Sequence record: DRR378314_2674
Strand: one strand, 5' to 3'
DNA: 58,112 nt
Position 1 is the stretch's first letter, and every line of letters begins with the position of its first letter. The notes below the pieces were generated by a model. That model worked only from the letters and a program-made list of their open reading frames with translations, was not told where the DNA came from and did not search any database. Position numbers and translations under genes: made by a program. Positions 11,060 to 25,094 of this stretch are shown one piece after another.

Positions 11060-11136
11060 GTTTTTGTTCTTCTTGTCCTAAACTATAGTTGTCTGCTTAG
11101 AAATAAAATTGCCCTAGGAAAACAGTTGTATCAGCT

Positions 11137-12519
11137 TTATTCAGTTTTCAAGCGTTCCTGTTCCCATTCTTCGGACAACCTTTTTTCCAAAATCGGTTCT
11201 ATCAAGGTTTTTCGGGTGTTGGTTTTTACAAAGGGGTATAATTCCAGATCATCCTTCATTTTATCCAGTCTGGATGCGTATTTATTGGTGCCTACCAGGA
11301 TTTTATCGCGGCTGTTAATGCTTTCCTGTTCCTTGGTGGCGCTTTCCTTTATTTTTTTCTGAATGAGATGTTCCTTCAATTGCACCAGAAATCCGCCGCC
11401 CGCTTCAATTTGTTTAAATAATTCCAAAGCTTTGGAAGAGAGTTGATGTGTTATGGACTCAATATAATAGGCCCCATCGGCCGCATTGTTCACCTTGTCA
11501 AAATAACTTTCATTCTTTAAGATCAACAGTTGATTTCTGGCCATACGCTGCCCAAATTCATTCACCTTATGGTATATGGCGTCATATGGCATATTTAATA
11601 TCGTATCTGCTTCCCCTAAAATGGCGGACATACATTCCGTTGCCGAGCGTAGCATATTGGTGTTGTAATCGTACAAGGTTTTATTTCTCAGAGTGGGCGT
11701 AGCTATAATATGGCAATTCTCCAGAGCCCCATATTCCCTGGCAAGGGTCCTGAACAAAATCCGTAGTGCCCTCAACTTGGCTATTTCAAAGAAATAGTTG
11801 CCCCCAACCGAGACCTTAAAGGTTATTGTCGTTCTTTTTAGCCTGTCTTTATGGTGGTCGTTAAGGTGATTCAAATATTCATTGGCATGCGAAAGGGCAT
11901 AGGCCAATTGCTGCACCATATTTGCCCCAGCATTTCCATAGAGCGCCACATCCACACCCAAGGTTTGGTCATGATTTAAATTTAGAATTTCCCCTAATAT
12001 TTTATGATCTTGATCAAGCTTGTATTGCCAGTTGCCATTTCTTGCCAAATGACCAATAATATCGATATTGGTAAAGACCTTGTGATGATGGTTTTCTGTG
12101 GCAGCCAAAATCGATCTTACAAAGTCGTAGGATAGAAATTGGAGATTAAAATGGAGACTTGTTTGGCCAAGATCAATTTCATGAAGCAGTTCATGAATAT
12201 TTATTTCTGTGGAAGGAACGGTAAAATAGATACATTCAGCGCCCTTGGTTATGGCATCCAAAGCTTTTTTGTTGCCCATTTTGGCATTCCCGGCGTATAT
12301 GCCCTGTGCTATGCTCCAACCATTATCTTTTGGTACTCCGGATATCTCGAGCGCCTTTAGATCTTCGGTATTGTAGAAGGGTTTTACCTTAATGCCCTCG
12401 GGAGATTCCCAAACCAATTTACTGTTGTAATCCTCACCTTGCAACTCGTACTGGATCTTTTGCTTCCATGCTTTGGAAGAAATCTCGTGAAAATTGCTAA
12501 AGAGTTCGGATTTACTCAT
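11137..12519 (-). CDS. mutA: Methylmalonyl-CoA mutase small (beta) subunit
   Basis: Motifs EGIKVKPFY, YFFEIAKLRALR, NMLR, ARNQLL.LK.ES, GAYYIE and LVGTNKY. No B12 motif. Adjacent to the large subunit. Confidence 0.9.
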   Translation of the reverse strand: MSKSELFSNFHEISSKAWKQKIQYELQGEDYNSKLVWESPEGIKVKPFYNTEDLKALEISGVPKDNGWSIAQGIYAGNAKMGNKKALDAITKGAECIYFTVPSTEINIHELLHEIDLGQTSLHFNLQFLSYDFVRSILAATENHHHKVFTNIDIIGHLARNGNWQYKLDQDHKILGEILNLNHDQTLGVDVALYGNAGANMVQQLAYALSHANEYLNHLNDHHKDRLKRTTITFKVSVGGNYFFEIAKLRALRILFRTLAREYGALENCHIIATPTLRNKTLYDYNTNMLRSATECMSAILGEADTILNMPYDAIYHKVNEFGQRMARNQLLILKNESYFDKVNNAADGAYYIESITHQLSSKALELFKQIEAGGGFLVQLKEHLIQKKIKESATKEQESINSRDKILVGTNKYASRLDKMKDDLELYPFVKTNTRKTLIEPILEKRLSEEWEQERLKTE

Positions 12520-12844
12520 CTTCCTTGGTTTTTACACTATCCGCATATTCAATTAAATAAATTTCCTCATTTTTCTTTTTCAGATAATATTGTTCCCTGG
12601 CAAATTTTTCCAACTCCTCGGGGTCCGATAGCTTTTCTATAATTTTTTTATCCTTGGCTATTTCTTCATGAAGAAATTCTTTCTGCTTTTCCAGATTGTT
12701 TATTTGTTTTTTAAGCTCCCAATGTATGAGGAGGGAGTTGGTATCGAAAAAAACCATCCAAACCACAAAGACCGTCAGTACCAATACATACATATTGGTA
12801 ACCACCCCAAACCATTTTTTCTTTCTTATCCCTTTTAGTCCCAT
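12512..12844 (-). CDS. ftsB: FtsB/DivIC septum formation initiator family protein
   Basis: One TM helix, a coiled coil and the motif LEKFAREQYYLKK.NE. Confidence 0.85.
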   Translation of the reverse strand: MGLKGIRKKKWFGVVTNMYVLVLTVFVVWMVFFDTNSLLIHWELKKQINNLEKQKEFLHEEIAKDKKIIEKLSDPEELEKFAREQYYLKKKNEEIYLIEYADSVKTKEDE

Positions 12845-12850
12845 AGGTGA

Positions 12851-13459
12851 TTAGCTTAATTTTTCGTTGATTATTGTCCTTACAATGTCTATGGCCACGG
12901 TATTGTACTTGTTGTTTGGAATTATAATGTCCGCATATTCCTTGGTGGGCTCAATAAACTGATTGTGCATGGGCTTTAGCGTATTTTGATATCGATTTAA
13001 AACTTCATCCAAATCCCTGCCACGTTCAGTGATGTCCCTTTTTAAACGTCTTATCAGTCGTTCATCCGAATCCGCATGTACAAATATTTTAATGTCGAAC
13101 ATCTCCCTTATCTGGGGATTTGTCATGATGAGGATACCCTCTACGATCATTACCTTTCTTGGATGCGTTAGAATGGTATCGTTGGTGCGGTTGTGTTTAA
13201 CAAAAGAGTAAACTGGTTGGTGAATAGGAATACCTTTCTTTAAATCTTGTAAGTGGGTACCCAACAATTCAAAATCTATGGCTCGGGGATGGTCAAAATT
13301 TACCTGTGCACGCTCGTCATAGGTTAAATGGGAAAGATCGCAATAATAGGAATCTTGGGAAATAACCCCTACTTCCTCATACGGCAATTCATTTATAATT
13401 TGATTTACAACCGTAGTTTTTCCGCAACCTGTTCCTCCGGCAATCCCAATAACCAACAT
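12851..13459 (-). CDS. udk: Uridine kinase
   Basis: Motifs IGIAGGTGCGKTT, QDSYY, NFDHP, EGIL, RRLKRD..ERGR and YADIIIP. Confidence 0.96.
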   Translation of the reverse strand: MLVIGIAGGTGCGKTTVVNQIINELPYEEVGVISQDSYYCDLSHLTYDERAQVNFDHPRAIDFELLGTHLQDLKKGIPIHQPVYSFVKHNRTNDTILTHPRKVMIVEGILIMTNPQIREMFDIKIFVHADSDERLIRRLKRDITERGRDLDEVLNRYQNTLKPMHNQFIEPTKEYADIIIPNNKYNTVAIDIVRTIINEKLS

Positions 13460-13476
13460 GCATTTCTAATTTGTTC

Positions 13477-13484
13477 CAAAAATA
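13477..13484 (-). promoter_or_regulatory. Bacteroidota sigma70 -7 element (TATTTTTG) for the udk operon
   Basis: Exact TAnnTTTG match 17 nt upstream of the udk ATG. Confidence 0.6.
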
Positions 13485-13747
13485 ACAATTTGCTAGCAAA
13501 CCGTAATGATTAAAATAGATGCCTTGCCCATATACACATAATCTTTTTGTCCCCCTCCAACGTAAGTATAGGAAGTGTTGGTGATGTCTTTAATTTTTCT
13601 TTAAGCCATTGAATTAATTTTTTCGTTATCTATAATTAATTTAACAGATAAAAATCAGATAATGATAAAATTAGCGTTATATTCTTTGGGTGTGATTTTT
13701 TCTTTTGAAGTTTAAAAAATTAACAAATACCCAACATAAATATAGAA

Positions 13748-13755
13748 TATATTTG
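13748..13755 (+). promoter_or_regulatory. Putative -7 element (TATATTTG) for the serine hydrolase gene
   Basis: Exact TAnnTTTG match about 75 nt upstream of ATG 13830. Confidence 0.45.
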
Positions 13756-13829
13756 GGCGTTTTTCGGGTAGTTCATTTTTTATAGTGATTCGTATTTTTT
13801 TCATTTAACCAGTATTTTATTATTCCTAT

Positions 13830-14774
13830 ATGACGGGTAGAACTCTTTTTCAATTCAAAACGCGCCTAATTCTAGTATTGGGTGTATTTTTCTGCTGTGG
13901 CTTGGCGTACTCTCAAAAAGATTTGCCCATAAATATAGAAGATGCCAAAGTAAAGCCTCTTCCCAGTTTGGTAAATAGCGACTTGCAGAAAAGATTGGAA
14001 AAGGAGCTCATGTCCAATCCCAACTGGAAATCTTTAATGAACAATAACAAGATGGCCGTTGGCATAGTAGATCTGTCAAATCCCGAAAATGCAAAATATG
14101 CCAGTATTAATGGGGACTATATGATGTATGCTGCCAGTTTGCCCAAAATAGCGGTGCTATTATCCTCTATGGATGCCATAGAAAAAGGGGAGCTTAAGGA
14201 AACCCAGGAAATAAAGAAGGATATGCGATCTATGATCAGCAAATCCAACAACGAAGCAACCACCAGAATGATAGATCGTTTGGGATATGATAAAATACAG
14301 TCCGTTATGACCGATCCAAAATATATGTTCTATGATGAAAGTAAGGGCGGCGGATTATGGGTCGGTAAAAGATATGGAAGCGGTGGGGATACCAATAGGG
14401 AGCCATTAAAGAATTTGTCCCATGCTGCCACAGTAAACCAAGTATGTAGGTATTATTATCTGTTGGCCAATGGTAAATTGGTGAATAAGGGTAGGTCCAA
14501 ACAAATGTTGGATATCATGGGAGATCCCGAACTACACCATAAATTTGTAAATACCTTGGACAATATTGCTCCCGATGCCAGATTATATAGAAAGTCGGGC
14601 TCTTGGAGAACCTTTCATTCCGATTCTATTTTGGTTTGGGGAAATAATCCCAATCGACGTTATATTTTGGTTGCCTTAATAGATGATGCAGGAGGTGAGC
14701 AAATCATTAGGGACTTGGTAAGGCCCGTAGAAAGAGTGTTGAAGGCAGAGAGGGTACAATTTGCCGTTAACTAG
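13830..14774 (+). CDS. Exported serine hydrolase, class A beta-lactamase/PBP-like fold
   Basis: Signal peptide ..GLAYS|Q. SxxK = AASLPK, SxN = SNN, KTG-type = RKSG. Confidence 0.85.
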   Translation: MTGRTLFQFKTRLILVLGVFFCCGLAYSQKDLPINIEDAKVKPLPSLVNSDLQKRLEKELMSNPNWKSLMNNNKMAVGIVDLSNPENAKYASINGDYMMYAASLPKIAVLLSSMDAIEKGELKETQEIKKDMRSMISKSNNEATTRMIDRLGYDKIQSVMTDPKYMFYDESKGGGLWVGKRYGSGGDTNREPLKNLSHAATVNQVCRYYYLLANGKLVNKGRSKQMLDIMGDPELHHKFVNTLDNIAPDARLYRKSGSWRTFHSDSILVWGNNPNRRYILVALIDDAGGEQIIRDLVRPVERVLKAERVQFAVN

Positions 14775-14826
14775 ATCCATTTAGTATATTTCCTTTTGTT
14801 TATTCGTATAATGTTTGCCAATGAAT

Positions 14827-14834
14827 TAATTTTG
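14827..14834 (+). promoter_or_regulatory. Putative -7 element (TAATTTTG) for the NTT-HEAT gene
   Basis: Exact TAnnTTTG match 66 nt upstream of TTG 14901. Confidence 0.4.
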
Positions 14835-14900
14835 GCCCCAATCTTCTATGGATTGGTTTTAGATAGGAGTGCTGTTGGATATTACTAAAACGCATGAAAA

Positions 14901-17756
14901 TTGAACTACCTTATTTCATTTATTAAAACGTTTAAAACCTACATTCTAAAGGCATTTGATTTAAAAGAGGAGGAACTGACCAAAACACTTCTACTTCAAT
15001 TAAATATATTCCTCATTATTACGGTTTTATTGATAGTAAAACCTACTATAAATTCACTTTTTCTTTCTGAACTTTCTTCGGATGCACTGCCATTGGGCTA
15101 TGTTTTAACTGCTATCATGGCCGTATTGGGCTCATTTTTCTACGACAGGGCCTTGGAAAAGTATCCTTTGAATATCATTGTGGATCGCACCTTGATAGGA
15201 TCCGTTATTTCATTGATAATATTTGGCGTAGCCTTTAATTTTAACCTAGGCTATGGATTTGCACTGTATATACCTTACATCTGGGTGGCTATTTTTGGGT
15301 TGTTGACCGCTTCCCAATTTTGGGTAATGGCAAATCTGGTCTATAATGTTAGGGAAGCAAAGCGCGTATTTGGGTTTATAGGTGCCGGTGCCATTGGCGG
15401 GGGTATATTTGGGGGGTACTTAACCTCTTTATTGACCAATATCCTTAATACAGAGGATTTATTGTTTGTTGCCACAACCCTCTTAATGTGCTGTTTGCCC
15501 ATTACCCGATATATCTGGAAAAACGAAGTGTTGAAACTCAACTCTTTTCAAGTTTCCAGTCGCTCCAATCCAAAAGCGGAGTCCCCTTTTAGGTTGATAA
15601 AACAATCTAAATTACTTAGCTTAATTGCGGTAGTCATTGGAATAAGCGTTCTGGTGGCCAAATTGGTAGATTACCAGTATAGCGATTACGCTTCCAGGTT
15701 CATTAAAGATCAGGATGAATTAACTTCCTTTTTTGGATTTTGGTTTTCTACCCTGAGCGTTATTTCATTATTGATACAGTTGTTCCTCACCAAACGTATT
15801 GTAGGTACTTTTGGTGTTGGTAAATCCCTCCTATGGCTGCCTTCGGGCATATTGTTGGGGTCTTTTCTGTTATTGATAGTGCCGCAACTATGGGTGGTGG
15901 TGTTTATCAAAATCGTGGACGGAAGTTTAAAGCAGTCGGTAAATAAGGCGGCCACGGAATTACTCTCCATACCCATCCCTATAGAAATTAAAAAAAAGAC
16001 AAAGACATTTACGGATGTGGTAGTGGATAGTATAGCTACAGGGATGGCGGGCTTTATTCTAATCTTTTTTATTAATGGACTGGACATATCATCAACCTAT
16101 ATCAGTATAATTATTATTGGGCTTATTTTGATCTGGTTGTACTTTATATATCATTTGAGGAATGAATATATAATTTCCTTTAAGAGCTTGTTGGAATATA
16201 GCCCTACAAGAAAAGATAAGGCTGCCAAATCGGAAATAAAGGTTACCTCTATCATAGAAACGGTAATCAGGGTATTTGAAACTGGGAACGAGAATCAGAT
16301 ATTGCATATGTTGAATAAAACATTGGAAGTAAAGGATGAACGTTTCTTTTTTGCAATTAAAGCGCTGTTGAACAATCCGTCTGCCAAAGTGAGGGCTTTG
16401 GCCATTGAAAACCTATATTTTTTGAATATGGAAAATTTATGTGCTACGGTAGAGCCCATGATCTATGACAAGGATCAGCAAGTGACTACTTCTGCCTTTC
16501 GTTATTTGTTGAAGCGCTATCAACAAAACCCTGTGGAACTATTGGATAAATATTTATCGGTAAAGGACAATACCATAGCCAATGCAGCCCTAATTGGCCT
16601 GTCTATGGAATTGCGAAATAATAGGGTAATGCAGGACCGATTTAGTTTGGAACAAAGAATTGAAAATACCCTTGACCAGTTATCGCAAACCAATACAGAG
16701 CTGGAAAGGACCAATAAGATCCTGGCCATTCTTGAAACCATTGGGAATGCCAAGGTTGAAAATTTCTACCCGGTTATAAAGACGCATATATATTCCGATA
16801 ATGTTCTAATTGCAAATACCGCTATTTTGGCGGCATCAAAAACATTGGACAAGCAGTTTATTGATTTAATTGTTTCCAGATTATCGGGTAAGGACACCAG
16901 AAAATCTGCAATGGAGGCCCTCTACTTCTATGGGGAGCCCATTATTGATATATTGTTCGAGGGATTAAGAAATGAAAGCATTGACCCGGACGATAGCGCA
17001 TACGTGGTCATGGTTATTGGAAAGTTCGATTCACAAAAGGCCATCAATACCTTGATGAAACTAACTGAGGATATGGAACATACGGTGAAAATTGAAGCTA
17101 TTGAAGCCTTGAAACACCTCAAGTGGAAATATCCCCACCTTAAAATAAGGGATCAGTTTATTGTGGATAAAATCTTGGACGAGTGTCACCTGTACCAAAG
17201 TACCCTGTCCGTAATCTATACCCAAATAGTACTACAGTATAAGAAGAACCCAGAAAAACTGGAGACCAAGGAAGAAAATGAAGCCAGAAATGGCCTTATC
17301 CATTTGTTGGAACTGAGGTTGGACAGGCAATTAAAACGAATTTTTCAATTCTTGGGGGTCAAATACCCGCCCCAGGATGTAGATCCCATTTTAAATGCCA
17401 TACTAAAAGGTCAGGAAGAGCAACGTATACATGCCATTGAATTTTTGGACAATATCCTGGACATTCAACTCAAAAAGGAGTTGATTCCTGTTGCTGAATC
17501 CATTATACAGGTAGGTGTTATATCCGAAGAAAATCTAAAAAATCTGAATGTAAAGGTTCTTAGTGAATCCGAAAGCTATTTGTCCCTATTAAAGCGAAAG
17601 GATATTAAGCTGAAACTGGCGGTACTTTACTTGATTGAAAAAACCAAGGACCCAAAATTCACCCCTCTTTTGGAAATGGTCTTGGAGGACTCCAACGAGA
17701 AGGCCAGAAAAAAGGCGGCCGAAATCTTGAGTGACTTTAAAAAAATTAACGTTTAA
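14901..17756 (+). CDS. Npt1/Npt2 (NTT, ATP/ADP translocase-like) MFS transporter fused to C-terminal HEAT repeats
   Basis: About 12 hydrophobic segments in the first ~420 aa, with NTT-like motifs IVKP...SLFL, SQFW..AN..Y..REAKR.FG.IGAG, VDYQ and ELL.IPIP...K.KTK. The C-terminal half is alpha-helical with HEAT-like units (VRALAIENL, VKIEAIEAL, ARKKAAEIL). TTG start. Confidence 0.8.
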   Translation: MNYLISFIKTFKTYILKAFDLKEEELTKTLLLQLNIFLIITVLLIVKPTINSLFLSELSSDALPLGYVLTAIMAVLGSFFYDRALEKYPLNIIVDRTLIGSVISLIIFGVAFNFNLGYGFALYIPYIWVAIFGLLTASQFWVMANLVYNVREAKRVFGFIGAGAIGGGIFGGYLTSLLTNILNTEDLLFVATTLLMCCLPITRYIWKNEVLKLNSFQVSSRSNPKAESPFRLIKQSKLLSLIAVVIGISVLVAKLVDYQYSDYASRFIKDQDELTSFFGFWFSTLSVISLLIQLFLTKRIVGTFGVGKSLLWLPSGILLGSFLLLIVPQLWVVVFIKIVDGSLKQSVNKAATELLSIPIPIEIKKKTKTFTDVVVDSIATGMAGFILIFFINGLDISSTYISIIIIGLILIWLYFIYHLRNEYIISFKSLLEYSPTRKDKAAKSEIKVTSIIETVIRVFETGNENQILHMLNKTLEVKDERFFFAIKALLNNPSAKVRALAIENLYFLNMENLCATVEPMIYDKDQQVTTSAFRYLLKRYQQNPVELLDKYLSVKDNTIANAALIGLSMELRNNRVMQDRFSLEQRIENTLDQLSQTNTELERTNKILAILETIGNAKVENFYPVIKTHIYSDNVLIANTAILAASKTLDKQFIDLIVSRLSGKDTRKSAMEALYFYGEPIIDILFEGLRNESIDPDDSAYVVMVIGKFDSQKAINTLMKLTEDMEHTVKIEAIEALKHLKWKYPHLKIRDQFIVDKILDECHLYQSTLSVIYTQIVLQYKKNPEKLETKEENEARNGLIHLLELRLDRQLKRIFQFLGVKYPPQDVDPILNAILKGQEEQRIHAIEFLDNILDIQLKKELIPVAESIIQVGVISEENLKNLNVKVLSESESYLSLLKRKDIKLKLAVLYLIEKTKDPKFTPLLEMVLEDSNEKARKKAAEILSDFKKINV

Positions 17757-19005
17757 TAATCTTGTCTATGCTACTGGCCAGGGTCAAATGGTCTGTTGCT
17801 GAATTCTTTCGCAATACGTTGGTCATAAGTACCACTATATATTTGCAATTGTCCGGATGTTCTACAATGGCTACAGAATTCATATAGTTGGTAACATTGC
17901 CCATATATTTTCCACAGGCTTCACCTGTACTTCTATCACATTTGTATAAACTTCCCGATTTAAAATATACGGCAGCGGGCTTCAGGGCCGGGGATTGTGC
18001 GTATCTGATCCTTCTATCCGTCATATACATAAGGCGTTTCATTTCCAGGCTGGAATCTTGGTCCACCACCTTGCCCTGTTCCAACTGTATCAAGAATTTC
18101 ATCAACCCTAATGGAGACCCAATACTGCCCCCCTTATCGCCTACATAGCGGTTGGCTCCCGAAGTAAAAAAGCTTCCCAAGCGCCATTCATCAGTAGTAA
18201 TTCCCAATTCCCGTAAGGGTAGGTTTACCACGTCATTGGCCAAATCTGTCAATTCCTTTTTTGGGGTAGTGGTAAAGTATGTATCCGCCTCTTCCTGGCT
18301 CAGGGTGGGGTAGGATTCTCCGAATGCCGCCATCAATAAGGCTTCGCGCCATACAATACTGGCTGCCCCGTTGTTACTAACGGAAAGCATATGGTCTGCC
18401 CATTCAAACAAGGTAAAAACATCACTGGCTATTACCTGTCTTTTCAGCAATTTATTCGTTTCCAGATTAAAAATGGGTATGGTATGTGTATCCGTCAAGC
18501 CCCAATAGCCCGACTTTACCGATTTGGAACGTAAAAGCTCCAATCGCTTTTCAAAGGAATCTGGATATATTTTTTTCAATTGGGTAAACAAAGCTACCAT
18601 TACGGCCAGTTTGCCAACACTGCCAGGCTGATATCCGGCTGTTTCGTTTCGCTTGGCGTATCGAACACTGTCTATATCCGAAATATCCAATACGGCAATG
18701 GAATAACTCTTGTCCAAACCTCTAAATAGTGCGTTGATGTCTTTTTGGAATTGCTCATCTACACTTAGGAAAGCGGCAGTGCTGTCCTCTTTTTTCGATA
18801 TTAGGTTCAGTTCAATATCCATATAAGACTTTTGGGCCCCTGGAGGTATAACGGTGGTCGACTTTAGTTCTCCACTTTTAACGAGTTCCAGATACTTCAG
18901 CCTTTTGATTCCCGTATGCAAATAGCCATCAATGGGGTAATAGCTCATGGTGGTAAAGGCAGAGCATATCAGTAATAGAACAATATATTTAATACTCTTT
19001 TGCAT
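17746..19005 (-). CDS. Second exported serine hydrolase, class A beta-lactamase/PBP-like fold with insertions
   Basis: SxxK = PGSVGK, SxN = VSNN, FKSG. Signal peptide if translated from ATG 19005 (MQKSIKYIVLLLICS..), 1 nt after the upstream stop. The ORF track starts at 19029. Confidence 0.8.
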   Translation of the reverse strand: MQKSIKYIVLLLICSAFTTMSYYPIDGYLHTGIKRLKYLELVKSGELKSTTVIPPGAQKSYMDIELNLISKKEDSTAAFLSVDEQFQKDINALFRGLDKSYSIAVLDISDIDSVRYAKRNETAGYQPGSVGKLAVMVALFTQLKKIYPDSFEKRLELLRSKSVKSGYWGLTDTHTIPIFNLETNKLLKRQVIASDVFTLFEWADHMLSVSNNGAASIVWREALLMAAFGESYPTLSQEEADTYFTTTPKKELTDLANDVVNLPLRELGITTDEWRLGSFFTSGANRYVGDKGGSIGSPLGLMKFLIQLEQGKVVDQDSSLEMKRLMYMTDRRIRYAQSPALKPAAVYFKSGSLYKCDRSTGEACGKYMGNVTNYMNSVAIVEHPDNCKYIVVLMTNVLRKNSATDHLTLASSIDKIIKR

Positions 19006-19006
19006 C

Positions 19007-21913
19007 TTATATTTTTTTAGAAAGGGCAATGTTTTTGTCCAGATCGATTTTTGGTGTAATAGATTCCAAATAATTGGAACTTAACGCTTTCTTATTCTCT
19101 ACAAAAGGGCGTATTTGAAACAGCCACAGCTTATTGTTTTGGAATCCCAGTTCCACGTCATAGGCCCCTTCATAATCCGATTTGGTTTCAGTAGCCATTT
19201 TTTCCCGAATTGTTTTGGCAAATGCCCTTATTTCCTCAATGTTTTTTTGGTTTAGTATAAAATTCTCAAATGTGGACATTCTTTTTTCCGTTCCCCCTGC
19301 AGCTGGAAGTCGATTGTGGTACATTTCCCTAGCGGGTGCCAAGAGTTGGGTGCCACCAATATCCTTTAATAGGTAAGTTTCTGCCGATTGGCCATCTACA
19401 GCACCCCCGGCACCCCTGCTAAAGGCAATGGTAATATCATCCGGATTTCCGGAACTGATGCCCTTGGTGATCAATACCCCGGAATAGTCCACATCCACAC
19501 TGGGGATTATCAAAATGGAAGGGAATACATTTTCAGGATTAAGGAGATATTTTTGACGCCATTTAAAACTGCGTTCGGAATAGGGGGAAGCCCAAACATC
19601 CTTAATGCCTGATATAATTTTTTCCTTGGCGGCTACATTGAATACAGTGAGGTTTAATCCGGCACCGGTAAAATTCTTCAGATCTTCCATGTTGGTGTCA
19701 CTTCTAAGAAAGACCGGGATTTCACCAATTGGTTTTCCCAATACTTCTTTGAACCCCTCTTCCAATTGTGTAAGGAATTGGGCCTTCATTGACATTTTCT
19801 TTATGGCCTCCCTTAGGATTTCCAATTGGCTTAGTTGATAGTTTTCAACCTCGCCTTCCGCAATGCCTTGTGAGCGCATGGTCTCGGCCTCCTTGAAAGT
19901 GGAATTTAAAAAATCCCAATAGCTTCCCTGCTGCTCGGGCATAGGTTGGTCCATATGGTCCTTAAAGATTCCGAAGGGAATCACCAGACCTTCTACCACC
20001 ATATCCGGGAACATTTTTTTTAACTGTCCCAAATTGGCCGCCTTTGGACCGCAAAGCTTACCTGAATCCTCGGCGTCCACTGACCTTAGGTTTAATATGG
20101 TGTTTTCATCCAAACGTATGTTCTCTATGGGTACTTCAATTCTTTCCTCTTTACGCTCTATCTTAATAAATAAATTGCGTTCCTCCTCGGACATATCCTT
20201 TTCCAACTTCATAATAACGTTGCCCTTGTTGGATACCGCATAAAATACCTTTTCTCCGTTATATTTCTGAAGACCTTTAAGATTTTCATCGCTTAGGGCG
20301 GCATTGGGGATACCCATATTCCGGGCCAACAATTGCACGTGAGACACCATATTTCCTTCCGATACCGTGGCAATTCCGGCCACTGGCTTAAGATCTGAAG
20401 GAGGGCGTTGAAAAATATAGATTTTATCGGATGTAACCTCAATTTCATCTGGAGAACCACTTATCACTACCAATTCGCCCAAGGCATATCCAGGATTAAG
20501 GCCTCGTAGGGCACTTTGATTGTCTATGTCCATCACTCTATTTGTCAAGGCGGATTCCTGGGCAATGATATCGCCCAATTCTCCCACGGTTTGGCCTAAA
20601 TAGAGGGCTATGGAACCTCTAATTTTGTCATCAATAAACCCATAAGCCTTAGGCTCAAAAGCGGTGTAAATGTCTACTATCTCCTGATAATTGGCCTTTA
20701 CCATGGAAGAACTCCATTCCACTTCCCTACGCGCATTTTCCAATACTGTGGTAAGCTGCCCAAGGGACATGGCATTGCCATTGGATCCCTTTAGGGATAG
20801 ATTAAGTTGTTCCCATTCTGCCAGTTCTATATATCCTGCACCGGCATTGGCCATGCCCAAATAGCAAACTTTGTCCAATAGGCCATTAAGGTCTTCAGGC
20901 TGCCATTGGGGAGAATTTTTAAATATAACTTCTTCCAACTTAAGGGAAGCGTCCAACAACTGAAGTCGGGCTGTTGAATTCAATTCTTGTAGAAGGGCAT
21001 GTCTTATATCCAACAGCAATTCGGCTGTGGCGGGAATAAGTACTGCCGCATTTGCTACTCCACTATAACCAGTAGTAAAGTTTTTTATGGCAACCCCTAT
21101 AGGGCTATCCTCTACAAGTGGTGTATTTTTTTGTATCTGTGCAATATCAACTGGTTTGTAGAAATTGGCCATAGTAGACACCAAGGCATCCATTTTGGCT
21201 TTTACCTCATTGGTCAGCTGGTTGCTGTTTTTGGACTTAAAGTTCTTTACTTTATTTATATCCCCTGCATCGGGCTGACTATGGATTTTAACCCTTAAGT
21301 CCATAAATTCTGGGACCATGTCCGAAATTACCTTTGAATCGCTCCTTATTTTTTGGGCTAGATTATCGTCGCCATTATGGGGTATGTCCTTTAAAGACTG
21401 CCGAATGAGGTAAAAATTTTCAGCCAAATTTTGAGTGTCGGATAAAAGCCATTTATAAAAGTCCACGCCCCATGCCTCTTCGTCCTCTGCCTGTATCGCC
21501 CCCCTATAGAACTGCCCCTTTTCCAGGATCCAGCCATTGTCAACAGTTCTTAAATACTTGTCCAATTGATACTGCTTAAGACGGGAATGGTTATTTTCTG
21601 CGTCCCAAAATTCCTCCTTGGAGGTATAGGATAAAATTTGACCCAAATAGAGGTGGTTGCTCTTTCCTAAATCGATTATAGAGCTTTTATAGGTGGCGTG
21701 CTGTACTCCAGGACCTATGTCATCGGGACAAGGATCTTTGGGCTGGCGTATGCTTCCATCTGTACAGAACCAGCGAATTTCTTTGTACGGTCCACGGATA
21801 TCCTTCTTGTAAGAGTTGATCAAATCCTTTATTTCCTGATTGCCCAATTTTTGTCCGGGACTTATTAATGGAAAGCAGAATAGTAGGATATATATAAATA
21901 TATGTTTTTTCAT
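19007..21913 (-). CDS. Exported dikinase-like protein: helical N-terminal region, phospho-His swivel domain, C-terminal PEP-synthase/PPDK-type ATP-grasp domain
   Basis: N-terminus MKKHIFIYILLFCFPLISPG|Q. His motif EGNMVSHVQLLARNMGIPNA. ATP-grasp motifs GPKAANL, RSDTNMED..FTGAG, SGVLIT and DVELG..LFQIRP. No PEP/pyruvate TIM barrel. Confidence 0.8.
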   Translation of the reverse strand: MKKHIFIYILLFCFPLISPGQKLGNQEIKDLINSYKKDIRGPYKEIRWFCTDGSIRQPKDPCPDDIGPGVQHATYKSSIIDLGKSNHLYLGQILSYTSKEEFWDAENNHSRLKQYQLDKYLRTVDNGWILEKGQFYRGAIQAEDEEAWGVDFYKWLLSDTQNLAENFYLIRQSLKDIPHNGDDNLAQKIRSDSKVISDMVPEFMDLRVKIHSQPDAGDINKVKNFKSKNSNQLTNEVKAKMDALVSTMANFYKPVDIAQIQKNTPLVEDSPIGVAIKNFTTGYSGVANAAVLIPATAELLLDIRHALLQELNSTARLQLLDASLKLEEVIFKNSPQWQPEDLNGLLDKVCYLGMANAGAGYIELAEWEQLNLSLKGSNGNAMSLGQLTTVLENARREVEWSSSMVKANYQEIVDIYTAFEPKAYGFIDDKIRGSIALYLGQTVGELGDIIAQESALTNRVMDIDNQSALRGLNPGYALGELVVISGSPDEIEVTSDKIYIFQRPPSDLKPVAGIATVSEGNMVSHVQLLARNMGIPNAALSDENLKGLQKYNGEKVFYAVSNKGNVIMKLEKDMSEEERNLFIKIERKEERIEVPIENIRLDENTILNLRSVDAEDSGKLCGPKAANLGQLKKMFPDMVVEGLVIPFGIFKDHMDQPMPEQQGSYWDFLNSTFKEAETMRSQGIAEGEVENYQLSQLEILREAIKKMSMKAQFLTQLEEGFKEVLGKPIGEIPVFLRSDTNMEDLKNFTGAGLNLTVFNVAAKEKIISGIKDVWASPYSERSFKWRQKYLLNPENVFPSILIIPSVDVDYSGVLITKGISSGNPDDITIAFSRGAGGAVDGQSAETYLLKDIGGTQLLAPAREMYHNRLPAAGGTEKRMSTFENFILNQKNIEEIRAFAKTIREKMATETKSDYEGAYDVELGFQNNKLWLFQIRPFVENKKALSSNYLESITPKIDLDKNIALSKKI

Positions 21914-21942
21914 AGTGATGTAATGGCAGTATAAAGTGTAAT

Positions 21943-21950
21943 CAAATGTA
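21943..21950 (-). promoter_or_regulatory. -7 element (TACATTTG) for the dikinase-hydrolase operon
   Basis: Exact TAnnTTTG match 29 nt upstream of ATG 21913. A TTTG lies 15 nt further upstream, which is a short spacer. Confidence 0.55.
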
Positions 21951-22134
21951 ATACCAATTTTAATGCAAATAAATTTTTTAAGCCTAGTTTCGATGGCCCG
22001 ACCAAATAAACCGTGACTAAAAGGTGGGAAATAGTAATTGGAATGGAATTTGGCCTGTATGTTCTTAGAATGTAATCAATTGAAGGAAGATTTACAAATT
22101 GTTTTTTTTGGGGCTACCATGCCAAAGTATCAGC

Positions 22135-23424
22135 TTAGACTCGGTGGTCTATAACAATAACGGGTTTTCTGCTCATTTTGGGAAATCGCAACTCCTGTAG
22201 GGTTTTAAAATCGTGGAATTCAATTTTGGGGAGTACCCGCAGTTTTGCCCTAAAGTGATCCTTGATGGTTTGTAATAAATCATTTGTAGGGCTGGAGGTG
22301 GCTATTTTAATACAAATTTCATCGGTTCCTATGTCATTATGGTCTATCTCGATTACAAAGGCGTCTATTTCATTGAAATAGTTAAGCACGTTGTACATGG
22401 CCGGAGGATATAGGGTAGTGCCCTTATATTTTATCATCTGTTTCTTCCTTCCAATCACAGGACCTAAGCGAGGTGTATTTCTTCCACAGGAACATTTGGA
22501 GGTATGGGCTTGGACAATATCACCGGTTTTAAATCTCAGCAATGGCATACCTTCAACCCCCAAGGTTGTAATGGTAAGCTCTCCCGGCATTCCCTCTTCA
22601 ACTTGTTTTTCATTATCGTCCAAAATTTCGATGATGATCAATTCCGGATGATGGTGGCCGCCTTGCTGTGCGGTACATTCGGTAAAGGCCGTACTCATTT
22701 CTGTAGAGGCATAGGTGGAATAAAGGGGAATGTCCCAATCTTTTTTAATTTTGGCTGCAAGGGTATTCAATGAAAAATCTTCATTACGCAGTGATTCCCC
22801 TATACAAATAGCCCCTTTTATCCCCGCTTCGTTGGGGTCAATTCCGTGCTGATGGGCGTATTCTATAAGTTTCAATAAAAAAGAAGGGACCACGATGAGG
22901 TAGGTTGGCTTAAACTTAAGGATGGAATCCCATTGAAGTTCAGGAATTCCGGCGCCTACCCTTATAATTCCGGCACCTAGCTCCCTAGCGCCTAAAAAAT
23001 AGGCCAATCCTGCCATAAATCGTCGATCTATAGTCGTTGTTAATTGCAAAATATCGTTTGCCGTAACACCGGCACAGTCAAAGGAGATGGCCTCGTTATA
23101 GGCCAAGCGATTAAGGTCATTATCTGTAAGGGCAAAGGTAACAGGTTCGCCCAAAGTACCGGAAGTAGTTACGTAATCTATGATCTTGTGCCTATCTACG
23201 CATAAGAAGTCATCATTATATTGTTGTAGATCCTCTTTGGAAGTTGTGGGGAGTTTGGTGAGGTCTGCCAAGGTCTTGATATCGCTGGCCAGTAAATTGT
23301 GTTCCTGAAAAATTCTTTTATAATAGGCAGAGTTTTGGGTAATATATTCTATTAGTTCCCTTAAACGCTGTTCTTGTAGTTGTTTAATTGCCTCTGCCGA
23401 TGCTTTTTCGATTTCAGGGATCAT
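22135..23424 (-). CDS. Phenylacetate-CoA ligase family aryl-CoA ligase (FlxY-like, probable 4-coumarate-CoA ligase)
   Basis: ANL motifs TTSGTLG, YASTE, RFKTGD and GR..QMIKYKG. Cluster context. Confidence 0.88.
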   Translation of the reverse strand: MIPEIEKASAEAIKQLQEQRLRELIEYITQNSAYYKRIFQEHNLLASDIKTLADLTKLPTTSKEDLQQYNDDFLCVDRHKIIDYVTTSGTLGEPVTFALTDNDLNRLAYNEAISFDCAGVTANDILQLTTTIDRRFMAGLAYFLGARELGAGIIRVGAGIPELQWDSILKFKPTYLIVVPSFLLKLIEYAHQHGIDPNEAGIKGAICIGESLRNEDFSLNTLAAKIKKDWDIPLYSTYASTEMSTAFTECTAQQGGHHHPELIIIEILDDNEKQVEEGMPGELTITTLGVEGMPLLRFKTGDIVQAHTSKCSCGRNTPRLGPVIGRKKQMIKYKGTTLYPPAMYNVLNYFNEIDAFVIEIDHNDIGTDEICIKIATSSPTNDLLQTIKDHFRAKLRVLPKIEFHDFKTLQELRFPKMSRKPVIVIDHRV

Positions 23425-25094
23425 TATTTTAATTTACGTTTTAGTCTTCGAATATACGAATGTACCAAAGCTTTCTCTGGTACTGTTGTAATTTCTTTTG
23501 TGCTGGCTTCCATAAAGTTGTTTAAGGCTGCCCTATAATATTTTCTATTGTAATTATAGAGGCCTACCCAATAATGTGTTTCCCAAAATTCAGGATTCAA
23601 TCTTTTAAACTCCTCAAGATATTCAGGAGCCAAGTGTTTATTGTCTGTAACTGATTGTTTTATTTGTTGAATCTCTACGCGATACTTTTCATAGTTTTGA
23701 TATGCCTGGGTATAAAGAAAACTATCCTTTTCAATATTTTTAGTGGGGACGGATAGCGTGGATCCCTTCCTTTGACTTAGACTGTCCTTGAAAATTTTGT
23801 TTAGGTCATAGGCCACAAACTCTCCTAATTGGTAGGGATTTGAAGACACCCAAACCAATCGCTGTTCCGGCTTAAATACAATTCCGTGATGTGCCAAAAG
23901 CTGGTTTAGCGCCTTTTCATTGCCATAGCCGATGTTGTTGTCGTCAAGCCCTTGCTTATTTCTTAGGATGTCCACTGCAATTTCTGGGGTGATTTTGTTC
24001 TGATTTTCCAAAAGTTCGTCCATGCGCTCATATCTGTATTTGGAATGACTTTCGAAGATGTGTTTTTGGTTGTTTTTGTCCTCTGCATAGGCGGTACTTT
24101 GAAAGTGGTTGGAGCAGATCAATTGATTGGAATCGGGAACTTCATAAACGCCAAAATTATGGGGGGAGACTTCTATTATTATTGCCTTTTTATCCCTGGC
24201 ACTGCCTACCAAAATAGATTCCGATACAAAGACCTGTCGTGTTTTTGCTATGGCTATGGCCTCTTCCAGCGTAGTTGCATATTGTAAGATCTCCCTGGTA
24301 AGGATGCTGATAGGGGTTTTGGCCACCAAGGGAATTTTGGATTTTCCCGCATTGATGGTAACCGTTAGACCATGCTCGTTCATTCCGGAGACCACTCCCG
24401 TCATACCGGCCCAGGTCACGGACATAAATTTGTGGCCTTCTGTAGGGTCAAGGAAAGAAATTATTTTGTTTTTTGCAAAATCATCCCCTGCGTAAAAGTC
24501 GAAATTGCGACCAAGAATCAAACTTCCGTCTTCGGATTTATCGCCCCAGACAGCAAAGGAAGAACAGCCAACAAGGGCCAGGTCTTGAAGGGCATGCCCT
24601 ATGTCATGGGCGCCATGAAGATATAGTACCCTTGAATATGGATCTGCTATGTCGTTGAAGTTTGGGGAAGCGTATCTGGAAAGCCCCCAAATTTCCGCTT
24701 TAATTTCTTCGGGGATGTTCTTGTACATTTTTCTGTTGTACCAGGCCAAGAACTTTCTCAGAAAATATCTTTTTGTTTTGGAAGGCACCAATTCTTCTAC
24801 TTTGGACAAAAATATTGCTTCCTGTTGTTGAAATAGGTCTTCCGTTAGGGCTCCGGTTATTAATCCCCTTTGCAAGGGGTCTCCGGAAACATAAAGTTCC
24901 CACAACCCTTGTTTGTTCTTGGCCAGGGAGTTATTGGAATAAATATAGGAGGTATCCGAGGTTTTTGTTATTTCAGGAATTTGGGGATTGTAGTTACTTA
25001 AATCAGGTCTATCCTTTAGGGATTTTGAAATTCCACAAGAACCAAAAAGCCCAAGCAAAACAACAACACCTACAATCCATTTTATCCGATACAT
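23424..25094 (-). CDS. C45 family Ntn-hydrolase/acyltransferase lipoprotein
   Basis: Lipobox LFGS|C, autoproteolytic G|CSSF, GRNFD, GMNEHGL and SNHF, with a TPR-like C-terminus. Confidence 0.87.
   Translation of the reverse strand: MYRIKWIVGVVVLLGLFGSCGISKSLKDRPDLSNYNPQIPEITKTSDTSYIYSNNSLAKNKQGLWELYVSGDPLQRGLITGALTEDLFQQQEAIFLSKVEELVPSKTKRYFLRKFLAWYNRKMYKNIPEEIKAEIWGLSRYASPNFNDIADPYSRVLYLHGAHDIGHALQDLALVGCSSFAVWGDKSEDGSLILGRNFDFYAGDDFAKNKIISFLDPTEGHKFMSVTWAGMTGVVSGMNEHGLTVTINAGKSKIPLVAKTPISILTREILQYATTLEEAIAIAKTRQVFVSESILVGSARDKKAIIIEVSPHNFGVYEVPDSNQLICSNHFQSTAYAEDKNNQKHIFESHSKYRYERMDELLENQNKITPEIAVDILRNKQGLDDNNIGYGNEKALNQLLAHHGIVFKPEQRLVWVSSNPYQLGEFVAYDLNKIFKDSLSQRKGSTLSVPTKNIEKDSFLYTQAYQNYEKYRVEIQQIKQSVTDNKHLAPEYLEEFKRLNPEFWETHYWVGLYNYNRKYYRAALNNFMEASTKEITTVPEKALVHSYIRRLKRKLK

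Follow-up and report, generated by a model that had tools for sequence, protein, structure and literature searches.

A conserved gene set of a predicted exported dikinase, two SxxK paralogues and an NTT/TLC carrier suggests a use of ATP outside the cytoplasm

The stretch of DNA analyzed in this study (hereafter the window; 58,112 nucleotides of record DRR378314_2674) contains four adjoining genes, whose open reading frames and Pfam matches agree with the convergent layout given in the original prediction. The plus strand carries h1 (13830-14774; 314 residues; Pfam Beta-lactamase2, 70 bits) and a carrier of the NTT-HEAT type (14901-17756; 951 residues from a TTG start; Pfam TLC and HEAT_2), and the minus strand carries h2 (17746-19005; 419 residues from the ATG at 19005; Beta-lactamase2, 37 bits) and a dikinase (19007-21913; 968 residues; Pfam PPDK_N). 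The stop codons of the carrier (17754-17756) and of h2 (17746-17748) confirm that the converging genes overlap by 11 nt. The TAA stop of the dikinase (19009-19007) is followed, after one base, by the ATG at 19005, the first codon of 'MQKSIKY', and the spacing of 1 nt between dikinase and h2 therefore holds if h2 starts at this codon; counted from a TTG, its reading frame spans 17746-19029 on the minus strand and encodes 427 residues. On one side the module is flanked, as predicted, by a uridine-kinase-family gene (12851-13459), and on the other by an AMP-binding gene and an AAT-family gene. The intergenic region 5' of h1 (13460-13829, plus strand) contains one TAnnTTTG site at 13748-13755 and no Rfam match, the one 5' of the dikinase (21914-22134, minus strand) contains one site at 21943-21950, and a further site starts at 14827 on the plus strand. 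The -7 promoter motifs proposed for both arms are thus present, but they have no statistical weight, since the whole window holds 86 such sites against 76.5 +/- 8.3 expected and those at the module are no more than chance would provide.

The dikinase is composed of a predicted signal peptide (residues 1-22), a two-cysteine motif (Cys50/Cys62), an all-helical N-terminal domain of no assigned type (residues ~77-454; domain length ~430 residues), a phosphohistidine swivel domain (residues ~470-570) with the candidate catalytic His525, and a C-terminal ATP-grasp domain of the PPDK_N type (residues ~620-963); the AF2 model of the protein has a pLDDT of 92.8 and a pTM of 0.90. Pfam PF01326 (PPDK_N) matches residues 621-946 with 87.9 bits (cut-off 27), and within this domain no or almost no variation is seen at R737, D739, T740, E743, E921 and R935. 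For the swivel domain, the Pfam scan reported no PF00391 match in the window dikinase itself, and this family exceeds its cut-off of 23.1 bits in the remote dikinases P0200 (25.1 bits) and P0180 (25.4 bits). The profile built from the dikinases (A1) matches the PEP synthase 8a8e with an E-value of 4.9e-36. Residues 471-548 of the window dikinase align with residues 385-465 of the solved enzyme, in its swivel domain, and His525 is kept in 99 % of 80 sequences.

The name under which this protein is found in databases, phosphoenolpyruvate synthase, is not supported, as its scores fall far under the cut-offs of all NCBIfam PEP synthase, PigC and Rph models. It shares with PEP synthase, PPDK and rifampin phosphotransferase the PPDK_N ATP-grasp and the swivel histidine motif ('SHVQLLARNxGIP' in the window, 'SHAAIVSRELGIP' in 8a8e), but the order is permuted, with the swivel preceding the ATP-grasp. 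An identity as PEP synthase proper was rejected with a best NCBIfam score of 86.9 bits where 883 are required; the PEP/pyruvate TIM-barrel domain is also missing, no third Pfam domain being present. Rifampin phosphotransferase was likewise rejected, with 39.9 bits against 999 and a domain order different from its ATP-grasp, RIF-binding and swivel succession. The plant enzyme GWD1 has the same succession as the window dikinase, an N-terminal acceptor part, a histidine domain and a C-terminal ATP-binding domain, the last being homologous to those of PPDK and PEP synthase (PMC13553574). The window protein, however, lacks CBM45 and the central domain of glucan water dikinases, and its acceptor part has no detectable sequence similarity to that of GWD1, as residues 1-470 matched neither a Pfam family at E<=1 nor any PDB sequence; an identity as glucan water dikinase was not retained. 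Moreover, GWD acts in plastids, whose interior contains ATP, whereas in the window dikinase a putative signal peptide is followed by two conserved cysteines.

Export of the module proteins was called from hydropathy and inspection of the sequences. Signal-peptide-like N-termini are present in h1, where the peptide would end near AYS/QK, in h2, whose predicted mature N-terminus is 'YPxDGY', and in the dikinase, so that three of the four proteins appear to carry the signals originally assigned to them. The signal peptide and the conserved cysteine pair predict that the dikinase is exported and works outside the cytoplasm. Alternatively, the enzyme could stay in the cytoplasm, if its start has been mis-called or the hydrophobic stretch is an anchor that is not cleaved; the other genes would then be linked to it in some other way, for instance by taking up and processing a substrate for phosphorylation inside, and the manner in which export was called allows for this. 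Yet with positive charges at the N-terminus and one hydrophobic helix behind them, the remainder of the protein would lie outside, and the hydrophobic segment is found in 102 of 122 full-length dikinase representatives and in 58 of 64 dikinases from remote loci. The two cysteines directly after the segment are 99 % and 97 % conserved, and the Gln that follows it matches the cleavage sites of Bacteroidota signal peptidase I, in which Gln is frequent at +1. We consider a cytoplasmic dikinase very unlikely, and the location outside the cytoplasm that had been proposed for it is retained.

The description of h1 and h2 as two beta-lactamase-fold hydrolases stands as regards their fold and export signals, and can be refined: judged by their sequences, they are a paralogous pair of their own in a PBP-A-like subfamily. 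With PBP-A (Tll2115 of Thermosynechococcus) and class A beta-lactamases they share Beta-lactamase2 and the SxxK, SxN and K(T/S)G motifs. In h1 these are S103-L-P-K106, S139-N-N141 and K255-S-G257, with SxxK, SxN and KSG invariant across 27 sequences, and in h2 they are S-V-G-K, S-N-N and K-S-G-S, invariant across 41 sequences in which C364 and C372 (numbered from the TTG start) are conserved as well. Tll2115 (2j7v) is the nearest solved relative of the h1 profile (A4), but the match is weak (E 1e-5, an alignment of three short stretches); for h2, whose AF2 model has a pLDDT of 87.9, no solved relative was found by sequence. The two profiles, A4 and A5, align with each other in hhalign with a probability of 99.1 %, and the proteins have further motifs in common, e.g., 'VDxxDPxxPRYA', h2 being a paralogue of h1 that carries insertions. 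The NCBIfam model of subclass A2 beta-lactamases gives 15.4 bits for h2, against a cut-off of 320, and does not match h1. At remote loci, an N-terminal hydrophobic segment is present in 39 of 45 h2 and in 26 of 30 h1 proteins. Both families are found solely alongside the dikinase, a tie that sets them apart from PBP-A.

The membership of the carrier, an inner-membrane protein, in the NTT/TLC family is solid at the sequence level. Positions 4-393 of its profile (A3) align with residues 28-490 of 9j3n (E 4.1e-28), and 9j3j is matched at E 3.4e-25; these two solved ADP,ATP carriers are the sole PDB matches at E<=0.1. The window carrier's own TLC score is modest (PF03219, 36.5 bits against a cut-off of 21), and substrate specificity is not something that sequence alone provides. 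The NTT/TLC domain covers residues ~1-430, with 11-12 hydrophobic segments and a K/R-rich central loop, orthologues aligning from residue 1 onwards, and it is followed by a HEAT-repeat tail of ~520 residues (HEAT_2, PF13646, 64.2 bits; HEAT, PF02985, 22.6 bits in the whole carrier against a cut-off of 23.5, and 25.8 bits in a scan of the tail by itself). The same architecture, an NTT with C-terminal HEAT repeats (PF13646, PF02985), was described by Major, Embley and Williams (2017; PMC5381601) in fusions from free-living bacteria including Bacteroidetes, which they term uncharacterized; the accessible text of that paper states that characterized NTT carriers transport nucleotides, and is silent on any association with SxxK proteins or an exported dikinase. 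In contrast to those fusions, the conserved partner in the module is the NTT domain alone, since remote module carriers are ~430 residues long and devoid of HEAT repeats (all five scanned pass the Pfam TLC cut-off, with 24.6-74.9 bits), and a HEAT tail on module carriers is confined to Bacteroidota. Thus, the tail of the NTT-HEAT protein first put forward as a component of the system does not belong to the conserved core.

Co-occurrence across genomes had been set beforehand as the test of the four-gene system, and it bore the proposal out. All four genes are present in an identical set of 40 of 201 family genomes, and in the other genomes none of them occurs alone, except for a dikinase piece, the only match, in one fragmentary assembly (G150). 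A 401-genome sample of the phylum includes 12 dikinase-positive genomes, and an NTT-like gene accompanies the dikinase in 12/12. The order dik>h2><NTT<h1 is seen again in 59 of 80 Bacteroidota loci, with h2 directly 3' of the dikinase in 78/80, and of 66 loci with 8 kb or more of downstream sequence, 55 contain all four genes; where carrier and h1 are missing from the locus, they are located together at another site of the same genome (5/5 tested). At metagenome loci in which the dikinase is only 29-32 % identical to that of the window and at least 6 kb downstream are available, an NTT-like gene is present in 22/22 and all four families in 19/22, and such four-family loci extend to distant phyla. 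No fifth family is conserved at module loci, the next being an ABC ATPase (17 loci) and panB (11). The arrangement is far from chance.

A neighborhood kept by shared descent, with no common function, might account for this pattern, as kin keep gene order and counts within a family are not independent. Against it, the four families adjoin again at ~30 % dikinase identity amid wholly different other neighbors, split modules are kept as fixed pairs within one genome, and the trio of dikinase, h1 and h2 is gained or lost whole; descent alone is an extremely improbable explanation. This trio is the strict core, all-or-none, and it is always accompanied by an NTT/TLC carrier in every complete genome or long-flank locus examined. 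The carrier is not bound in the same way: nine genomes have strong NTT(-HEAT) matches without dikinase or h1 (and without h2 in the 4/4 tested), one of them, G590, being congeneric with the module-positive G594. The idea of a single four-gene unit therefore holds for the co-occurrence of the genes but has to be loosened for the carrier, which must have a role that needs no trio. The dependence is one-sided, as a relation between supplier and consumer predicts. In two genomes of one family (G579 and G606), the sole NTT-like gene is unfused and distant, ~350 kb from the trio in G579, and in G582 all four module genes are dispersed.

PPDK_N dikinases consume ATP, and the gene set, its conservation, the predicted export signals and the intact catalytic motifs form the basis of our reading, in which the ATP for a periplasmic dikinase acting on an envelope substrate most likely comes through the carrier; what we infer is that ATP is the cargo, which way it moves, what accepts the phosphate and what the SxxK proteins do. 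The carrier would work as an exchanger, moving cytoplasmic ATP to the periplasm and spent adenine nucleotide, perhaps with phosphate, back in. The dikinase, exported by the Sec route, would load His525 from the exported ATP, and its swivel domain would pass the phosphoryl group on to a substrate bound by the N-terminal domain. Both SxxK proteins, as acyl-serine enzymes, would process this same substrate, before or after phosphorylation, and a peptide-bearing or glycan component of the envelope would be the most likely candidate. As a whole, an envelope module conserved among diderm bacteria, made of the strict trio and a carrier that exports ATP to the dikinase, is an interpretation to which we give slightly less than even confidence. 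The conservation of the module from marine flavobacteria to distant phyla suggests an undescribed use of ATP outside the cytoplasm.

To our knowledge, ATP export by an NTT from a free-living cell has never been shown, and characterized NTTs import or exchange nucleotides. The carrier could accordingly be directed inward, supplying no ATP and importing a nucleotide, a nucleotide-like compound or a phosphorylated product made by the trio in the periplasm; in one version, external nucleotides would be salvaged and the dikinase run toward ATP formation, PPDK-type reactions being reversible. The nine genomes with the carrier and no trio would suit such a general uptake system. Nevertheless, a periplasmic ATP-grasp enzyme would still need an external high-energy phosphoryl donor, and we know of none outside the cell, while the constant company of trio and carrier in the phylum sample and at remote loci fits supply at least equally. 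We regard an inward carrier as rather unlikely.

With ATP supplied from the cytoplasm, the module might also serve the inactivation of drugs or other xenobiotics in the periplasm, the dikinase phosphorylating an incoming antibiotic, in the manner of the cytoplasmic rifampin phosphotransferase, and the SxxK pair hydrolyzing or binding it. The ATP-grasp part of profile A1 does match 5hv1 and 5fbs (~E 2e-26), which we take to be rifampin phosphotransferases although they are deposited as PEP synthase, both h1 and h2 fall in Pfam Beta-lactamase2, and the spread of the module is patchy (40/200 genera, 12/401 phylum genomes). However, besides the low NCBIfam score given above for rifampin phosphotransferase, the acceptor domain of the window dikinase has no sequence kinship to that enzyme. 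Identities track taxonomy, with 74-99 % inside the genus, 50-72 % inside the family and ~42-53 % inside the phylum, the G+C content of the module matches that of its flanks, and no mobile-element genes are conserved beside it. Drug inactivation appears quite unlikely to be its function.

Returning to ATP export for an envelope substrate, a more specific proposal can be made, which we offer as a long shot. Several diderm phyla may run an ATP-driven periplasmic chemistry, in which the NTT exports ATP, the dikinase phosphorylates a wall component, for example a peptide carboxylate to give an acyl phosphate, or a glycan hydroxyl, and the SxxK paralogues transfer or remodel the resulting group. Beta-lactamases and DD-peptidases accept acyl phosphates. 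If this were true, the SxxK paralogues could act without the energy of the D-Ala-D-Ala bond, the usual energy source of wall cross-linking.

We found no paper describing the four-gene module, in line with the earlier statement that no characterized system has this composition. As a point against our reading, some dispensability is indicated within the genus, where a full-length dikinase is missing in 3 of 25 genomes, with completeness values of 60 %, 90 % and 100 %. Against the PADLOC anti-phage models, the four proteins gave only a generic HEAT-ARM match (35 bits), on the carrier tail. Transcription of the module is weakly indicated by its presence in contigs from RNA libraries.

The four open reading frames of the module (13830-21913) form two converging arms between a uridine-kinase-family gene (12851-13459, minus strand) and a pair of genes encoding an AMP-binding enzyme and a member of the acyl-CoA:6-APA acyltransferase (AAT) family (22135-25094, minus strand). 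The plus-strand arm consists of h1 (13830-14774), a 314-residue SxxK protein matching Pfam Beta-lactamase2 at 70 bits, and the NTT-HEAT carrier (14901-17756), 951 residues long with a TTG start. The minus-strand arm comprises the dikinase (19007-21913), whose 968 residues match PPDK_N at 87.9 bits over residues 621-946, followed by the second SxxK protein, h2 (17746-19005/19029), with a Beta-lactamase2 score of 37 bits. Two spacing features noted at the outset are found in the window sequence: the converging stop codons overlap by 11 nt, and a single nucleotide separates the stop of the dikinase gene from the ATG of h2. The module has a G+C content resembling that of its flanks, and close homologues of the window proteins bear names from Arenibacter, of the Flavobacteriaceae. 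The AMP-binding/AAT genes are those previously taken as the start of a pigment cluster. Beyond the uridine kinase gene lie a DivIC/septum-formation-initiator gene (12512-12844, minus strand) and two genes for methylmalonyl-CoA mutase subunits (8885-12519, minus strand), which appear to be ordinary housekeeping genes unrelated to the module.

The dikinase carries its ATP-grasp domain at the C terminus. Residues 471-548 align with the phosphohistidine swivel domain of the PEP synthase 8a8e (SHVQLLARNMGIP versus SHAAIVSRELGIP), and in remote members of the family Pfam PF00391 immediately precedes PF01326; the domain order thus reads, from sequence, as an N-terminal part of unknown type, the swivel histidine and the ATP-grasp domain. 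This order is permuted relative to both PEP synthase and rifampin phosphotransferase, whereas it is the same as in potato glucan water dikinase, for which a published account lists two CBM45 modules, a central domain, a histidine domain and an ATP-binding domain (PMC13553574). The database name "phosphoenolpyruvate synthase" is unsupported, since the NCBIfam models for PEP synthase, PigC/RedH and Rph all score far under their cut-offs. Across 80 aligned full-length members (27-53 % identity to the window protein), 99 % have His525, and the ATP-grasp residues R737, D739, T740, E743, E921 and R935 show little or no variation. The N-terminal part also has many conserved residues, including Cys50 (99 %) and Cys62 (97 %), which sit in the motif RGPF..IRWFC.DG...C..GGG.QHG. 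An AlphaFold2 model built from the same alignment is confident (pLDDT 92.8, pTM 0.90) and predicts a small β element (43-75), an all-helical domain (about 77-454), a β-rich swivel domain (470-570) and the ATP-grasp domain (620-963). For residues 1-470, neither Pfam (at E<=1) nor the PDB, searched by sequence, contains a match. The ESM Atlas has no entry for the window protein and, for the homologue P0094, offers scores alone, all under 0.8. The family comprises at least 356 clusters at 50 % identity (E<=1e-30), with named members from Flavobacteriaceae, Gemmatimonadota, Desulfovibrionales, "Deltaproteobacteria" and Myxococcota.

The two SxxK proteins belong to paralogous families (hhalign probability 99.1 %, E 1.5e-18, 20 % identity), h2 differing from h1 by insertions and an N-terminal extension and retaining a cysteine pair of its own. 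The SxxK, SxN and KSG motifs are invariant in 27 h1 and 41 h2 sequences, remote ones included. The best solved relative of the h1 profile is Tll2115 (PBP-A; E 1e-5), and none was found for h2 by sequence, the AlphaFold2 model of which is confident (pLDDT 87.9). Single-sequence searches of the PDB gave no match for either protein. The apparently long h1 and h2 forms in high-G+C loci are artefacts of ORF extension rather than fusions.

Signal peptides had been proposed for h1, h2 and the dikinase, and all three N-termini are indeed signal-like: MTGRTLFQFKTRLILVLGVFFCCGLAYS/QK in h1, MQKSIKYIVLLLICSAFTTMS/YYPIDGY in h2 and MKKHIFIYILLFCFPLISPG/QK in the dikinase. By a crude hydropathy test this character is kept in the orthologues: of 122 full-length dikinase representatives, 102 show an N-terminal hydrophobic stretch, and among the 20 that do not, several are plainly truncated or fall barely under the threshold. 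At the remote loci, the same test is positive for 58/64 dikinases, 39/45 h2 and 26/30 h1 proteins. The conserved mature parts start directly after these stretches, and export of the three proteins is strongly predicted.

The fourth protein belongs to the ATP/ADP-translocase (NTT) family. Its first ~430 residues contain 11-12 hydrophobic segments and a K/R-rich central loop, and, if the protein is arranged like carriers with 12 helices, its HEAT tail (HEAT_2, 64.2 bits) would lie on the cytoplasmic side. The TLC score of the window protein is modest (36.5 bits against a cut-off of 21), and the carrier domain alone, as a single sequence, has no PDB match, whereas the full protein does. When a profile built from 17 module carriers is searched against the PDB, the sole matches are the solved ADP,ATP carriers 9j3n (E 4.1e-28) and 9j3j (E 3.4e-25), and they span almost the entire domain. 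Remote module carriers have a median length of 431 residues and lack the HEAT part, and the five tested all exceed the TLC cut-off. A phylogenetic survey has already recorded NTT-HEAT fusions, calling them uncharacterised (PMC5381601).

Of 201 genomes sampled from the family (one for each genus, the window's own genus excepted), 41 have the dikinase, and 40 have each of the carrier, h2 and h1. The set of 40 is identical throughout, and the 41st dikinase genome (G150) is an assembly of 610 contigs with a dikinase fragment at a contig end. The remaining 160 genomes have none of the four genes at the thresholds used. Within the window's genus, the dikinase is matched at E = 0 in 22 of the 25 genomes sampled and is broken into pieces in two of those 22; the three others are 60, 90 and 100 % complete, and the module is dispensable within the genus. 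No full-length dikinase match was obtained in 16 other sampled families of the order.

Among 80 Bacteroidota loci, 59 read dik>h2><NTT<h1, and h2 directly follows the dikinase in 78, the other two being cut by contig ends. Of these loci, 66 extend 8 kb or more downstream, and 55 of the 66 contain all four genes; two have the carrier and h2, one has h1 and h2, and eight have h2 only. In five of these eight genomes, all that were tested, h1 and the carrier gene lie side by side elsewhere, and the module therefore splits into the pairs dikinase-h2 and h1-carrier, as it also does in the genomes G237 and G055. More distant members were collected by a metagenome scan from a remote-alignment seed, which yielded 80 loci with dikinases 29-32 % identical to that of the window. 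Here, 22 loci extend 6 kb or more downstream; 19 of them have h2, h1 and an NTT-like gene, two have the carrier and h1, and one has the carrier and h2. The co-occurrence expected of a four-gene system is thus seen in the family genomes and in the long-flank remote loci alike.

In a sample of 401 genomes from the phylum, the dikinase occurs in 12. Three of other classes (G579, G606 and G594) have the dikinase, h2 and h1 adjacent and the carrier elsewhere, in another (G582) all four genes are scattered, and in one family (that of G579 and G606) the only NTT-like gene is distant, unfused and far from the three genes for exported proteins (the trio). The carrier profile detects an NTT-like gene in 40 of the 401, including all 12 dikinase-positive genomes. 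Nine further genomes have strong NTT matches (E<=1e-59) without the rest of the module: the module dikinase was found in none of the nine, with partial ATP-grasp matches (ORFs of 796-916 residues) in five and nothing in four; nor was h1 found in any of the nine (positive control, 3/3), or h2 in the four tested, also with a positive control. The trio is thus all-or-none. Two genomes of one genus, G590 and G594, differ exactly by it. Among the complete genomes and long-flank loci examined, the trio never occurs without the carrier, whereas the carrier can stand alone, and so has a role independent of the trio and is not exclusive to the module. This one-sided dependence fits a supplier-consumer relation.

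By textbook, the periplasm is free of ATP, which is why those enzymes known to modify the envelope rely on donors that are lipid-linked or already activated. Dikinases of the PPDK type require ATP. The module dikinase, as judged from its sequence, keeps every catalytic feature and is a predicted extracytoplasmic protein; across phyla it is linked with the NTT family, to our knowledge the only carrier family known for ATP/ADP exchange. In the simplest reading, which we hold tentatively and a little short of probable, ATP would pass out through the carrier and AMP or ADP would return by it; the helical domain of the dikinase, which is novel, would hold a substrate for phosphorylation by the enzyme, and this same substrate would be acted on by both SxxK proteins. 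ATP export is our inference from membership in the NTT family, and all that concerns the acceptor is likewise inferred; we know of no NTT carrier shown to export ATP from a free-living cell.

Each part of the module is a member of a known superfamily, and we found no characterised counterpart for the combination, nor for what it implies: an enzyme that consumes ATP outside the cytoplasm and has a nucleotide carrier to itself. PADLOC assigned no defence family, and a literature search, outside which lay most subscription journals and supplementary files, returned no description of the gene set. As the module joins an exported, widely conserved enzyme with all the residues for ATP use to a carrier of the ATP/ADP-exchange family, the question of whether free-living bacteria deliberately supply ATP to the periplasm becomes directly testable. 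The module also offers a first functional context for the NTT proteins of free-living bacteria, with or without HEAT repeats, which are uncharacterised, for a dikinase family mislabelled as PEP synthase in databases, and for a new pair of PBP-like enzymes. Experiments are feasible because it is present in cultured marine flavobacteria (Arenibacter, Cellulophaga, Winogradskyella, Maribacter, Dokdonia, Polaribacter and Formosa).

Regarding expression, each arm had been credited with a -7 promoter motif. TAnnTTTG sites do exist upstream of h1, the carrier gene and the dikinase gene, but they carry no weight, since the motif is not enriched in the window (86 found, 76.5 +/- 8.3 expected). Scans for sigma-70 promoters (31 sites against 26.8 +/- 4.8) and terminators (11 against 9.7 +/- 3.5) were at chance level, and Rfam, searched at E<=1, returned a chance snoRNA match but neither a riboswitch nor any further RNA family. 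A terminator-like hairpin followed by a T run is located between h1 and the carrier gene (14838-14856, plus strand), with a TAnnTTTG site just 5' of it (14827), both types of scan being at chance level overall. The evidence for transcription comes solely from contigs of three RNA-library runs. These contigs bear pieces of all four genes at 90-99 % likeness, say nothing on level or strand and may derive from DNA carry-over.

Several variations were observed around the module. ORF clustering of the remote loci placed the four module families in 74, 51, 36 and 36 loci, followed by an ABC ATPase (17) and panB (11), neighbours that reflect lineage synteny. A fifth conserved gene was rejected, the ABC ATPase, panB and an Fe-S protein each being confined to part of the loci. 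A gap of ~1.7 kb separates the dikinase and h2 genes in 5/80 loci (L108, L097, L116, L124 and L139); the only one checked (L108:12997-14520) holds an ORF of 507 residues in which a GNAT acetyltransferase domain is combined with a carbon-nitrogen hydrolase domain. At L118:14174-15115, h2 and the carrier gene are separated by a gene for a membrane protein of the TerC family, and gaps of similar size occur in L082, G110 and G133. At loci L071-L150, the carrier position (~14150-17010 in locus coordinates) is occupied by two discrete NTT-HEAT variants, one 80-86 % identical to the window protein in the NTT domain and 60-69 % in the HEAT tail, the other 51-57 % and 34-37 %, while the dikinase, h1 and h2 stay 60-78 % identical. 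Two Arenibacter genomes differ in the variant (L073 versus L088), and it looks as if the carrier has been replaced in place. In other classes of the phylum, NTT-HEAT adjoins a second, unfused NTT paralogue of ~450-470 residues, with or without the trio (G594, C7:47924-52201; also G590, G539, G551 and G598). Finally, the genome G079 has two NTT-HEAT genes (C29:312235-318797 and C40:84152-88290), one with h1 and the dikinase and the other with h2.
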